Assembly (NCBI GenBank): GCA_965226645.1
Contig: CBDDDL010000002.1
Location: forward strand, 667,147 to 731,146
DNA length: 64,000 nt
Origin: Candidatus Poriferisodalis sp.
Lineage (GTDB): Bacteria > Actinomycetota > Acidimicrobiia > Acidimicrobiales > Poriferisodalaceae
Direction of reading: 5' to 3'
Of this stretch, positions 53,277-58,182 are shown piece after piece (positions within the stretch are counted from its first letter, which is position 1; each line of letters opens with the position of its first letter). A program made the position numbers and the translations under genes. The notes beneath the pieces were generated by a model. That model was given only the letters and a program-made list of their open reading frames with translations. It did not search any database and was not told the DNA's origin.

Positions 53277-53951
53277 GTGACGGAAGCGCCGCAGACGACG
53301 GCTAGCCGGCTGGTGTCCGAGTTCGTGGGGACCGGGTTCCTGCTACTGAGCGTGGTCGGCTCGGGGATCATGGCCGAGCGGCTGAGCCCGAACGATGTCG
53401 GACTGCAGCTGCTGGAGAACTCGATCGCCACTGCGGGTGCGCTCGCGTGCCTGATCCTGCTGTTCGGGTCGACGTCGGGGGCGCACTTCAACCCGGCGGT
53501 GACGCTGTGGGCACGCCTCGAAGGCGACCTGGACAATCGGATGGCCGGGTTGTACGTGGTGGTGCAGACCGCAGGCGGGATCCTGGGCGTTATCGCAGCC
53601 AACGTGATCTTTGAGCTCGATGCGGTGTTCTGGTCGACCAATGACCGGATCAGTGCCGCGACGTTCGGTTCGGAGATCATCGCCACGTTCGGGCTGGTGC
53701 TCGTCATCATCGGCGTGGTCCGCTCGGGCAAGTCCCAGTTCGTGGCATTCGCCGTGGCTGCCTACATCGGCGGCGCCTACTTCTTCACGTCGTCGACCAG
53801 CTTCGCCAACCCGGCAGTGACCGTGGCCCGCATGTTCTCCGACACGTTTGCCGGCATCGCCCCTGCGAGCGCCCCGCTGTTCATCGTGGCGCAGTTCATC
53901 GGAGCGCTGTGCGCCATCGGCGTGGCGCGGGTGACACACCCGGCGCGCTGA
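53277..53951 (+). CDS. Aquaporin / MIP-family channel
   Basis: Two NPA boxes (..GAHFNPAVTL.. and ..SFANPAVTVA..). Six TM helices. 224 aa. Confidence 0.85.
   Translation: MTEAPQTTASRLVSEFVGTGFLLLSVVGSGIMAERLSPNDVGLQLLENSIATAGALACLILLFGSTSGAHFNPAVTLWARLEGDLDNRMAGLYVVVQTAGGILGVIAANVIFELDAVFWSTNDRISAATFGSEIIATFGLVLVIIGVVRSGKSQFVAFAVAAYIGGAYFFTSSTSFANPAVTVARMFSDTFAGIAPASAPLFIVAQFIGALCAIGVARVTHPAR
53904..53949. repeat. 46-bp direct repeat, copy 1 (the last 15 codons of the aquaporin gene)
   Basis: gcgctgtgcgccatcggcgtggcgcgggtgacacacccggcgcgct is identical to 58137..58182. The stop is TGA here and TAG in copy 2. Confidence 0.85.
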
Positions 53952-54310
53952 GCCTGCCGCGCGCGTCATGCTCTCGCGACTGTGTGCACACGCCGCACCT
54001 GTCGGTCAGCTACTGCCGAACACCCGACCAAATGCACTACACGCAGCCTCCAGCGACGGAGGCGCAGGTAAGCGCAGATCGCTTGCTCTGCACATGCTCG
54101 CCAAGGCCTCGACTCGAAGCTGACACTCACTCTCTCGCCCATCAAATCGCGGATAATCGCTGACCGATTCGTCGATTTCCTCGTCTGCGAGGTAGGCCAG
54201 CCGGGGCAGTGATCGGCTTCACATCGCGCAAGTTCCATCTCAATGCCTTGAAGAACCGCTGCGCGAACACCATTTGCAACTTGTCTTCGCAGAGCAGCGT
54301 CAAGCGGACG

Positions 54311-54916
54311 CTACGACTCATCGAGCCAGCCGCGAGCTACCTGCTCGGACAGCTTCAGGCTTTGCCCGACGTTGCGCTCCGAAATCGGCACCGGAATCGT
54401 CGCTGAAGCCGCGACCCGGCGAAGCATGACGCCGTCGGCTGGGCCGAGATAGTCGATCAGTTCAGGATGGTGCGAACACAAGACGGCCTGCGACTGTGTG
54501 TCTCCGCAAAGCAGTGACAACTCGTCGAGCCACGGCTGAATCTCGGCGAGCCCTACGTAGTTGTCGGGCTCATCGAGCAGCAGGACTGACTCAGTACCCG
54601 CTGGTCGGAAGTGCAGCAGTGCGTACAGGATCACAACTGCCTTCTGACCTTCCGACAGCTGGTTGAACCGCAACCAGTACTTGAATCCATCACCGGTGCC
54701 GTGACGGACTTCGAACATCAGCGCTCGTGAATCGAGGCCCGACTGCTGCAAGCTCAGGTCTACGAAACCGTCAAGTATCGGTTTCAGGGCCTTCAGATGT
54801 TCGCCCGCTGCACTTGGGTTGAACTGAAGCGCTTGGCGGTACCAATTGACGAAGTTGGAGGCGTGTCGATCTAGCACGGAATCTTCTTGATGCGACTGCG
54901 CGGCTCTGTCGCACAA
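54311..54916 (-). pseudogene. ABC-like (AAA_21-type) ATPase, C-terminal fragment (signature, Walker B, H-loop)
   Basis: ..LSEGQKAVVILYALL.. ..SVLLLDEPDNYVGL.. ..QAVLCSHHPELI.. The frame is interrupted upstream by a 73-bp tandem duplication and by IS insertions. Confidence 0.6.
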
Positions 54917-54970
54917 CGTCGCGACCTTCTCGGGCGTGTCGATCTAGCACGGAATCTTCTTGATGCGACT
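54860..54970. repeat. Tandem duplication: a 38-bp unit (ggcgtgtcgatctagcacggaatcttcttgatgcgact) present twice, 73 bp apart, inside the ATPase coding region
   Basis: Seen directly. Both copies encode ..QSHQEDSVLDRHA.. on the minus strand. A 73-bp period breaks the reading frame. Confidence 0.7.
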
Positions 54971-55099
54971 CTGCACCTACGAGCGGTGGGCAGACAGAGG
55001 TCACGATGACAGACCGCATGTGTGAGACAAAAGCCGACAGCCGCTGGTTGCTTGAGTTCGGCAAGACCCTCGCAAGCGCGGATTCGTTCCAATCGGAGG

Positions 55100-56400: not shown

Positions 56401-56639
56401 CCACCGGCCGCGACGGCGGACAGAACACTCACGGTGTGGCTTACAAGGCTCCTATCGGGTCACATCCGTCGGGCCGGTCGGTGCGCGCCCCGCCGACCAG
56501 ACAAAGCCGACAGATCCACCGCAGGGCACCACGAGGGGCCGGTTGCAACTCGGGTCAGACCCTCTCCTGCCGACAGGGCCCAACCATTATGAGTGTTGCA
56601 AGTGAACGGTCATGATGACCGTTGCGAACACATGCAGCC

Positions 56640-57631
56640 GACCGATGGAGGTGTCAGTATGGCAGCGAGGCTGAGTTTGGATGAGCGGGTGTTATCGAGT
56701 CGTCGCTCGGGACGGGCCGCAGCGTCGCGGACGTAGCGCAGCGGCTGGGCCGTGATCCGTCGACGGTGCATCGCGAGCTGGCCCGCTGCGCCGGGCGGGC
56801 GGGCTATGACGCCCGCTCGGCGCACGCGTCGGCATGCGCGAGGACGCGACGAGAGCGAACGCCCAAGCTGGCGGCCGATCGGGTGCTGGCCGCCGCGGTC
56901 GATGAGCGCTTGAAGCTGCGTGGTCCCCGCACGCGACCGCGGCGGACCTGCGCGAGGCGGGCATGAGCGTGTGCGCGGAGACGATCTATCGGGCGTGCTA
57001 CGCGAACGACGCGCGCAGCGGCCTGCCCGCCGGCACCTGGGCGAAGCTGCCGCGGCGCGCCCGGCGCCGTCGGCCGCGCAGCGTCGCGCAGGCCCAAAAG
57101 CCCAGCCCGCTGGGGGAATACCGGCCGATAGCCGACCGGCCCGACGACGTCGAGGACCGTATAGAGCCCGGCCACTGGGACCGCGACCTCATCGTCGGCA
57201 AAGCGAACCTCACCGCCGCGGTCACCCTCGCAGAGCGCACCAGCCGCTACACGGTCACCGCAGCGCTGCCCGACGGCTACGGCGCGCCCCAGGTCGCCGC
57301 CGCGGCCGCCGCGGCGCTGGGCCGCCAGCCCGCAGCGCTCGTGCGCAGCCTCACCTGGGACCAAGGCCGCGAGATGGCCCGCTGGGCCGACGTCGAGGCC
57401 GCGCTCGGCATCGAGGTGTTCTTCTGCGAGCCGCGCTCGCCGTGGCAGCGACCCACCAACGAGCAGACCAACGGACTGCTGCGCCGATGGCTCCCCAAAG
57501 GCACCAGCCTCGACATCGGACAACTGCGGCTCTCGGTCATCGAGGACAACCTCAACCACATGCCCCGCCGACTCCACCACTGGACATCAGCACACGACAT
57601 CTACACTCAACTCACTTGCAACCACCGGTAG
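56640..57631 (+). mobile_element. Degenerate IS30-family element (transposase carries at least one frameshift in its N-terminal HTH region)
   Basis: ORF 56963..57631 has the IS30 DDE core (..GHWDRDLIVGK.. ..LTWDQGREMA.. ..FFCEPRSPWQRPTNEQTNGLLRRWLPKGTSL..). The upstream HTH part (MAARLSLDERVL.. / ..VADVAQRLGRDPSTVHRELAR..) is spread over three frames. Confidence 0.65.
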
Positions 57632-58044
57632 AGCTTGCCGGCCTTCGATCCATCATCTCGGTAGAGCTGAACGTTCCCGTCGTCGAACGAGAACAGCGTC
57701 GTGTCGCCTGCGCTGAGCCGTTCCAAGCCGATGCGAGCACTTCGCTTGTCGAAGCGGTTGTGCTCAATCTCGATGCGGTAGCGAAAGTTGTCGTCACCTA
57801 CAACAGCGTCAATCTCGACGACTTGGACTCGATCGTGCTGCCACATCGTCAGTGCGCTCGAGGGGAAGCAGGACGCTTCGGTGACCTTGGCCTCGCCCAG
57901 GAGCAGCTGCCGCACGGCGTAGACGACATCGAGTAAGGCGGTCTTGCCAGACCCGTTTGGGCCGAGCAACAGATTGACTTCGCCGAGTCGTAGCTCGAAG
58001 TTGACCAAGCACTTGTAGTTGTGCACGTAAACGCGCTTCAGCAC
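57607..58044 (-). pseudogene. ABC-like (AAA_21-type) ATPase, N-terminal fragment (Walker A)
   Basis: VLKRVYVHNYKCLVNFELRLGEVNLLLGPNGSGKTALLDVVYAV.. The track ORF 57607..58173 adds 43 spurious N-terminal codons that run into the displaced aquaporin repeat. The fragment ends at the junction with the IS30-like remnant. Confidence 0.6.
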
Positions 58045-58136
58045 GGAGTCAGAGTATCGCCCGGTGTCTTGGTGGAGGCTGCTGCGGTGCTGGGTCGTGG
58101 TTCTCGCCGTTGGCGCGGCTCGCACCGCATACCCGG

Positions 58137-58182
58137 GGCGCTGTGCGCCATCGGCGTGGCGCGGGTGACACACCCGGCGCGC
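58137..58182. repeat. 46-bp direct repeat, copy 2 (displaced aquaporin 3' end)
   Basis: Identical to 53904..53949. It lies 4.2 kb downstream, just before convergent hemB. Confidence 0.85.

Follow-up and report, generated by a model that had tools for sequence, protein, structure and literature searches.

A decayed two-gene cassette with a predicted OLD-like ATPase in the aquaporin-hemB interval of a sponge-associated Acidimicrobiia bacterium

The subject of this analysis is a small gene cassette lying between the genes for an aquaporin (MIP) and for porphobilinogen synthase (hemB) in a 64-kb stretch of DNA from a sponge-associated Acidimicrobiia bacterium, whose closest named relatives are Candidatus Poriferisodalis. 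That whole stretch is called the window; coordinates are positions in it, position 1 being its first letter, and L-numbered loci are regions fetched from relatives. We think it probable that the aquaporin-hemB junction is a variable slot, that the slot in the window holds a two-gene cassette of about 1.86 kb made dead by four lesions, that the direct repeat around it preserves the old end of the aquaporin gene, and that the cassette has spread by recombination. It is an ordinary decayed island and no new kind of element, and nothing in it departs from known kinds. An earlier sequence-only reading of the window had described an insert bounded by repeats and carrying a single broken ATPase gene; part of that description stands and part is changed here.

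Two exact copies of the 46-mer GCGCTGTGCGCCATCGGCGTGGCGCGGGTGACACACCCGGCGCGCT, and no more, are present in the window, at 53904-53949 and 58138-58183, on the same strand and 4234 nucleotides (nt) apart. The first copy is followed by the TGA stop of the aquaporin gene and the second by TAG, and from the second copy to the stop of the convergent hemB gene there are 26 nt. Chance cannot account for an exact match of this length. The repeat, its 4.2-kb spacing, the differing stops and the position of the second copy before hemB are all as the sequence-only reading had given them. Within the repeat, an imperfect palindrome (GCGCGGGTG…CACCCGGCGC) can be read directly from the sequence. The stretch 58093-58142, with 62% identity to the aquaporin end, was considered as a third, diverged copy and rejected as chance, its local alignment scoring 18 against 16 ± 2.7 for shuffles and genomic windows. 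The features of the locus are as follows.

53277-53951, plus strand: intact aquaporin (MIP) gene, 224 amino acids, TGA stop (Pfam MIP, 2.3e-25; NCBIfam TIGR00861; 91-93% identity to the MIP of relatives)
53904-53949, plus strand: direct repeat copy 1, which forms the last, functional 46 nt of the aquaporin open reading frame (exact 46-mer, two in the window)
54006-54321, minus strand: partner pseudogene, Toprim/DUF4276-like, 183 amino acids when intact (blastn against L001; its ATG overlaps the ATPase end by 11 nt)
54311-54897, minus strand: ATPase pseudogene, C-terminal part with LSEGQK, LLLDEP and CSHHP (Pfam AAA_21, 1.1e-08; 96-100% identity to the intact L087 copy)
54898-54970, no strand: 73-nt insertion in the ATPase, made of a 35-nt filler (54898-54932) and a second 38-nt copy (54933-54970); +1 frame shift, not in L087, L088 or L001
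54971-55111, minus strand: ATPase pseudogene, middle segment (…PSYTSDWNESALARVLP…LVGAE), matching L001 10405-10582 and L087 at 99%
55112-55129, plus strand: outer 18 nt of the left inverted repeat of an IS30-family element, severed by the IS110-family element; joined to 56596 onward it matches the right inverted repeat
55130-56595, minus strand: IS110-family element of 1466 bp with an intact 404-amino-acid transposase running from 56359 to 55145 (NF033542, 1.8e-53; Pfam DEDD_Tnp_IS110 and Transposase_20)
56596-57641, plus strand: rest of the IS30-family element, its transposase with at least two frameshifts, its right inverted repeat ending at 57639-57641 (NF033563, 1.9e-57)
57642-58044, minus strand: N-terminal part of the ATPase pseudogene, beginning with GTG at 58044 and holding Walker A GPNGSGKT (Pfam AAA_15 and ABC_tran)
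58045-58137, minus strand: upstream (promoter) region of the ATPase, belonging to the cassette; 97-98% conserved with L001, L087 and L091, part-homologous to the upstream region in L092
58138-58186, plus strand: direct repeat copy 2 with its TAG, the original aquaporin 3' end, now displaced and non-functional, beside hemB, placed relative to hemB as in empty sites
58213-59193, minus strand: hemB, porphobilinogen synthase, the convergent flank (Pfam ALAD, 2e-137)

The ATPase motifs lie on the minus strand, GPNGSGKT within 57607-58173 and LSEGQK, LLLDEP and CSHHP within 54311-54916, where all four had been reported before. Walker A, signature, Walker B and H-loop are thus all present and in order, as in the AAA_15/AAA_21 group of ABC-type ATPases. 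When the joined fragments were used as a query they retrieved intact 376-amino-acid proteins that span both halves, at identities of 84%, 77% and 76%, one of them annotated Candidatus Poriferisodalis sp. The best of the comparisons is with the intact protein P0001, to which the two window fragments are 84% identical across its full length and which scores 54 bits on AAA_21 (cut-off 27) and 36.9 bits on AAA_15 (cut-off 32.1). Excising 55112-57641 and 54898-54970 in silico restores a stop-free ATPase open reading frame of 376 codons. By this comparison both fragments are parts of one gene, as the sequence-only reading had held.

The lesions were mapped by blastn against L001, L087 and L088. The first lesion, in the proposed order, is an IS30-family insertion sequence after ATPase codon 134, and the second an IS110 element specific for inverted repeats that would have entered the left inverted repeat of the IS30 element later. 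The resulting block of 2530 bp (55112-57641) sits after codon 134 and meets the N-terminal ATPase fragment at 57641/57642, the junction at which that fragment had already been seen to end. The IS30 element gives 195 bits on its family model NF033563 (cut-off 80) and the IS110 element 181.9 bits on NF033542 (cut-off 140), so by profile score each belongs to its family; that a frameshifted IS30 element breaks the ATPase was correctly recognized from the start. The IS110 element had also been taken to interrupt the ATPase. It is present, but it does not interrupt the gene directly, being nested in the IS30 left inverted repeat: when 55112-55129 is joined to 56596, 23 of 28 positions of the IS30 inverted repeats match, and unjoined only 11 nt do. 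The stretch 54971-55111, earlier assigned to IS DNA, is ATPase coding sequence instead.

The third lesion is the 73-nt insertion, whose 38-nt duplication and 35-nt filler shift the ATPase frame. The exact 38-mer at 54860-54897 recurs at 54933-54970 with 35 nt of unrelated sequence between, for a net gain of 73 nt; it is not the 73-bp tandem duplication described before, as there is no 73-nt unit. No source for the filler was found in the window or in about 90 fetched loci, and neither the 35-mer nor two 22-mers from it had an exact match in IMG/VR. A repeat-spacer-repeat geometry like that of the 38/35/38-nt lesion can come from off-target spacer integration by Cas1-Cas2. There is no CRISPR array in the window.

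The fourth lesion, a microhomology deletion of 230 bp, removes the Toprim catalytic core of the second, overlapping gene. Positions 11246-11475 of L001 are missing in the window, and the junction falls at about 54197-54202 between two GGCTGG hexamers. Partner residues ~42-118, the DGD motif among them, are lost with it, and the frame is shifted. The earlier list of disruptions had missed both this deletion and the gene in which it lies, and the ATPase was hit not three separate times but twice, by the composite IS block and by the 73-nt insertion. The original insert also had two genes and about 1.86 kb (4234 - 2530 - 73 + 230), in place of the single gene and 1.6 kb first estimated. Outside the lesions the window ATPase has a clean frame and is 97-100% identical to the intact L087 copy, and for this reason the inactivation of the cassette is recent.

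Besides the window, eight filled loci were found, with one species assembled twice (L001, L002/L003, L004, L087, L088, L091 and L092). Their gene order is hemB, ATPase, a gene of 182 or 183 amino acids that overlaps the ATPase end by 11 nt, and MIP. The sequence-only reading had recommended a look in relatives for intact copies with a partner gene, and here they are, with ATPase and partner adjacent. Intact cassettes stand between hemB and MIP in L001, L002/L003, L004, L087 and L091. L088 and L092 carry the cassette with the ATPase split or uncalled: L088 has a -1 shift in a G3C7 run of the ATPase (~5284) on a contig labelled 3x coverage, which is possibly an assembly error, and in L092 (4994-6750) the ATPase was not called as a gene.

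Empty sites were sought by scanning GTDB species representatives with the aquaporin protein. In five close relatives (L007-L010 and L013, with MIP 91-93% identical) the aquaporin stop lies 0-50 nt from the hemB stop, the 46-nt region is present in a single copy, and no ATPase or partner occurs within 6 kb. The insert as such is therefore borne out by loci in which aquaporin and hemB stand directly side by side, and no locus was seen that has the repeat without the insert.

More distant homologous cassettes (L005, L089 and L090) are located elsewhere. None of the cassettes in L003, L004, L005, L089 and L090 is surrounded by a duplicated 3' end of a neighboring gene, and since the cassettes of L003, L004, L005 and L089 have no flanking direct repeats at all, the repeat is not a property of the cassette family. 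The L090 region (5000-9000; ENA ERZ25067264, ctg835959) holds a homologous ATPase and partner at ~49% identity, bracketed by 300-nt direct repeats at 5919-6218 and 8568-8867 (97%) with the ATPase 5' end inside them. The heptamer AGGTGCC forms arrays on either side, and the arrangement resembles a partial tandem duplication.

The comparison of the window with L087 shows how such cassettes move. The two are 97-100% identical from ~58235, at the remnant of the repeat beside hemB, to ~54434, at the ATPase 3' end; the hemB and MIP flanks are 85-90% identical, and in the partner gene identity falls to 87-91%. This pattern marks a recent transfer by homologous recombination between the two lineages, with breakpoints near the remnant and at the ATPase/partner boundary. 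The gene trees of hemB and MIP conflict; filled and empty loci are intermingled in them, and the filled locus L004 falls among empty ones. L001, L087 and L088 come from one sample. The cassette would not be self-mobile, and would spread between co-occurring lineages by homologous recombination through its flanks and through the cassette itself.

The remnant beside hemB occurs only in the allele clade whose ATPases are at least 94% identical (the window, L001, L087, L088 and L091). It is not present in L002/L003, L004 or L092, whose ATPases are 81-87% identical. Because its position and the spacer downstream of it match a native aquaporin end, the hemB-side copy is read as the displaced original terminus of the aquaporin gene. 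The remnants are like each other and like the aquaporin allele of the window and L088, and unlike the aquaporin in the genome that carries them, so they move together with the cassette allele. In L001 the repeat runs beyond the stop codon, to ~59 nt. In L088 (4754-4801) 41 nt of the remnant have been deleted between the microhomologies GGGTGTG and GGGTATG, and the remnant is neutral DNA that is eroding within its allele clade. L092 shares part of the ATPase upstream region despite having no remnant, and a GAGCCG microhomology could explain the loss of the remnant there. We propose that a replacement aquaporin 3' end came in with the cassette, or was copied to its other side, and that the old end stayed by hemB. 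The repeat was most likely born in a single event of illegitimate or one-sided homologous recombination.

Exact repeats of a gene end around an insert are also what an integrative element would leave, and the repeats might be the attL and attR of a miniature one, with an attP that mimics the aquaporin 3' end and with a tyrosine or serine recombinase supplied in trans or an integrase since lost. The geometry is that of islands which integrate at a gene's 3' end and supply a new one, as the gene is intact and the old end has been pushed toward hemB. Clean empty sites exist, the L001 repeat continues past the stop codon to ~59 nt, and the repeat holds the imperfect palindrome GCGCGGGTG…CACCCGGCGC. 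We nonetheless regard this explanation as unlikely. No integrase lies between the repeats in the five repeat-bearing loci, and none was seen in the nearby open reading frames tested or genes called. The repeat is missing from three other cassette alleles in the same slot, and the tract exchanged between the window and L087 starts at the remnant and ends inside the cassette, at the ATPase/partner boundary. The distant cassettes L005, L089 and L090 are elsewhere, and neither they nor L003 and L004 are flanked by a duplicated gene end. No other cargo was found at the site, and the 26-nt core of the repeat had no match in the metagenomes of the Joint Genome Institute, so that neither further alleles nor other cargo turned up there. 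The insert bounded by repeats that the sequence-only reading had proposed thus stands as an insert, and the repeat falls as its general boundary. A related but bolder view, which we hold very doubtful, is that the cassette is a minimal site-specific mobile unit, a defence cassette of 1.9 kb without an integrase whose attachment site is its own copy of the target gene's 3' end. Its entry and exit would depend on a recombinase of the host or one acting in trans, or on a mechanism that uses the hairpin at the aquaporin terminus. If that were true, repeated integration and excision would have left behind the scattered empty sites as well as the allele-specific 46-59-nt repeat. The cassette does resemble islands that integrate in gene 3' ends in its 46-59-nt direct repeats of the target 3' end, its intact gene and the empty sites in relatives. 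It differs from them in having no integrase, in measuring only 1.9 kb, in showing the repeat in a single allele clade and in spreading as tracts of homologous recombination. Of the features that define a site-specific integrative element, repeats are present; a recombinase was not found between them or in the flanking genes examined, and the other alleles of the site do not share these boundaries.

The repeat might instead have arisen in a locus that was already filled, if the segment that begins 46 nt ahead of the aquaporin stop and takes in the cassette was duplicated in tandem and the second copy was then largely deleted, leaving just the duplicated aquaporin end beside hemB. That the cassette with its upstream region pre-dates the repeat is seen from the homologous ATPase upstream region of the repeat-less L092. 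About 10 nt after the stop codon are equal in both L001 copies, as expected if the spacer was duplicated too, the related L090 cassette shows a partial tandem duplication (300-nt repeats with the ATPase 5' end), and microhomology deletions are frequent here, with 230 bp lost from the partner and 41 nt from the L088 remnant. Set against this, two events are needed, no two-cassette intermediate was found at the site, and the remnant with its downstream spacer looks like a native empty-site junction, which insertion into an empty site fits equally. On balance we find such a duplication quite improbable. A scar left in one allele lineage by one recombination event is a better reading of the repeat than the two ends of a mobile element.

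Several observations weigh against our preferred account of a variable slot with an old aquaporin end and spread by recombination. The 46/46 identity of a supposedly neutral remnant to the functional copy could mean a recent site-specific event or gene conversion. GCC stands on both flanks of the IS30 element. No unambiguous IS30 target duplication was found at the insertion flanks, and if this GCC is a 3-bp target duplication, a G/C run of the ATPase already lacked 1 nt when the element arrived, which makes the order of events provisional. In the outgroups L011 and L012 both genes are on one strand with hemB upstream of MIP, and MIP genes at a greater distance do not adjoin hemB; because the outgroup arrangement differs, these loci do not polarize the slot as ancestrally empty or filled. 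On the side of function, a representative of HEC-01, the PADLOC candidate that the gene pair appears to be closest to, did not protect in the one assay published (bioRxiv 10.1101/2024.01.29.577857).

The sequence-only reading had held that no partner nuclease survives; the pseudogene at 54321-54006 is its remnant, and intact relatives always carry the overlapping gene of 182-183 amino acids (L001-L004, L087, L088 and L091; in L092 the form is extended to 249 amino acids). The invariant or near-invariant residues of the family are E12/D13 after strand 1, D76-G-D78 after strand 3, and E117. The window remnant keeps E12/D13, and DGD and E117 are gone. The Toprim pattern is a conserved Glu plus DxD, and DUF4276, of which Mad4 is a homologue, has been assigned to the Toprim superfamily (PMC12065111). 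A confident AlphaFold2 model of the partner (pLDDT, a predicted score on the local distance difference test, 89; predicted template modelling score, pTM, 0.85) has a three-layer alpha/beta fold with Glu after strand 1 and DxD after strand 3, and by this model the protein is Toprim-like. Foldseek of the partner against the PDB gave nothing below an E value of 1e-3, so the fold assignment rests on the combined evidence, and a sequence-profile search of the PDB with the partner alignment gave no relevant match.

No Pfam domain in the partner rises above threshold, DUF4276 reaching 14.9-15.1 bits (E ~0.03) against a gathering threshold of 30.2. Among 50 members of the family, PADLOC HEC-01B matched 34 (best 1.5e-06), DUF4276 matched 16 (best 9e-4) and mad4 matched 6. 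By these scores the partner would be a distant DUF4276 relative at best. A profile search with it returned 1,687 cluster representatives at E<=1e-3, and at least 12 pairs of ATPase and partner matches have longest contigs of equal length.

The ATPase had been suspected to be of a defence type and a search of defence profiles recommended; its best PADLOC matches are indeed ATPases of defence systems, mad3 (8.4e-20) and HEC-01A (1.5e-18), then PDC-M25A, AriA (~1e-13) and AbiLi. Its best sequence match in the PDB is the OLD nuclease of T. scotoductus, 6p74. By sequence similarity we read the pair as a split OLD-like system, an OLD-family nuclease as two genes, closest to PADLOC HEC-01 ('Hma-embedded candidate 01'). 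Like HEC-01, it consists of an ABC ATPase gene followed by a stand-alone Toprim-like protein of ~180-200 amino acids. The matches of the cassette are distant, however, the closest partners giving E values of 6e-4 to 5e-3 on HEC-01B (6.4e-4 for the L001 partner), and the cassette is not embedded in an Hma system.

Other known systems share the general plan and differ in particulars. PARIS has the same split OLD-like logic, an AAA_15/21 ATPase with a separate Toprim effector, and the ATPase matches AriA; in PARIS the ATPase scaffold lets go of the Toprim nuclease once it senses a phage protein, and tRNA is then cut by the nuclease (PMC11464382). The partner has 183 amino acids whereas AriB has ~300, the ATPase has 376 amino acids whereas AriA is ~55 kDa, and the partner has no DUF4435 or AriB match in Pfam or PADLOC, which sets the pair outside PARIS. 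In OLD proteins of classes 1 and 2 (P2 Old, 6p74) and in Gabija GajA, ATPase and Toprim are in one polypeptide, and the cassette has two overlapping genes; no GajB-like helicase lies next to it, and it is not of the fused OLD or Gabija type. The MADS pair Mad3/Mad4 (AAA ATPase and DUF4276) resembles it in that mad3 is the top PADLOC match and six members of the partner family match mad4. The NCBIfam MAD3 model NF047739 gives the ATPase 41.8 bits against a cut-off of 420, and no methyltransferase or other mad gene adjoins the cassette, whose neighbors are hemB and MIP only; this is not MADS.

Similarity and context make the cassette a candidate anti-phage system. By analogy with PARIS, OLD and Gabija, the ATPase would hold and regulate the Toprim nuclease, and a phage-derived trigger would release or activate the nuclease, leading to cutting of nucleic acid and abortion of the infection. 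For an uncharacterized split OLD-like branch, the locus adds a presence/absence case with intact orthologues, empty sites and a dated lesion series, and the partner family has ~1,700 cluster representatives in public data that no Pfam model captures. The case shows that such cassettes are exchanged by homologous recombination among co-resident sponge symbionts and quickly lost. The intact L001 and L087 copies are ready constructs with which to ask whether HEC-01-like systems defend. The remaining biology is as expected of a defence hotspot.

The two insertion sequences have a history of their own in these genomes. The ends of the IS110 element were set by ten further copies from Poriferisodalis contigs (loci L093-L102; transposase 97-100% identical), which start with CACTCATAATGG (TACTCAT… in L096) and end with …AGGAGCAT. 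All 11 copies stand at a site of the type TTGCAA–CCA(C/T)CG, ten of them, the window copy included, in inverted repeats of IS30 type with the site TTGCAA–CCACC(G/A), and the element lies in one orientation relative to the IS30 inverted repeat. Seven of the further copies are in a left IS30 repeat, two in a right one (L095 and L099) and one at a non-IS30 site (L096); the repeat in L094 is a variant of the IS30 type. The same 18-mer as at 55112-55129 follows IS110 in 7 of the 10, and an IS30-type transposase gene (HTH_38 and rve) is called beside it in 6 of the 10. IS110 and IS30 together are a recurrent composite in these genomes. Either the IS30 element entered the ATPase first and IS110 then entered its repeat, or the composite moved as a unit.

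The IR-targeting (inverted-repeat-targeting) elements of the IS110/IS1111 family are the nearest parallel, the window IS110 likewise having a fixed site (TTGCAA–CCACCG) in the terminal inverted repeat of another element and a single orientation. IS4321 and IS5075 are such elements and sit in Tn21-type inverted repeats; in contrast, the target of the window IS110 is an IS30-family element. An Rfam scan of 50000-60000 at E<=1 found nothing, the IS110 5' region folds no better than shuffles (z-score -1.4), and no bridge RNA was called. A promoter-like site on the minus strand at 56586-56613 spans the IS30/IS110 junction, IS30 providing the -35-like ATGACC and the left end of IS110 the -10-like CATAAT. 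It points into the IS110 5' region and transposase, and is the sole sigma-70-like match in 53800-58300 (0.2 expected). The IS110 transposase also has a C-terminal extension of ~60 amino acids beyond the end of the NCBIfam IS110 model, in which residues 350-387 match HTH_31/HTH_3 (helix-turn-helix; E 7e-06), and the many 97-100% identical copies retain it.

The gene order in the window is dnaE, thrS, alcohol dehydrogenase, McrB, McrC, an HNH protein, an animal-type haem peroxidase, MIP, the cassette, hemB and Fpg. The neighborhood had been called rich in defence genes, which is fair given McrB, McrC and the HNH protein nearby. This McrBC/HNH block occupies 44227-47880 and 48169-49668. Its McrB-like AAA_5 protein has 769 amino acids with a long N-terminal region, in which residues 78-113 give a weak Phage_int_SAM_1 match; McrC comes after McrB, and the 499-amino-acid HNH protein is encoded by the minus strand. 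L004 has neither the McrBC/HNH block nor the peroxidase, and its dehydrogenase directly adjoins MIP, so the dehydrogenase-MIP side is a second variable slot.

The haem peroxidase has 641 amino acids (An_peroxidase, 1.2e-154), and an 18-nt tandem repeat at 52941-53131 (~7 + 4 copies) encodes the (T/S)GSDTD-type repeats of its C-terminal tail. Haem peroxidases of the An_peroxidase type are unusual in bacteria.

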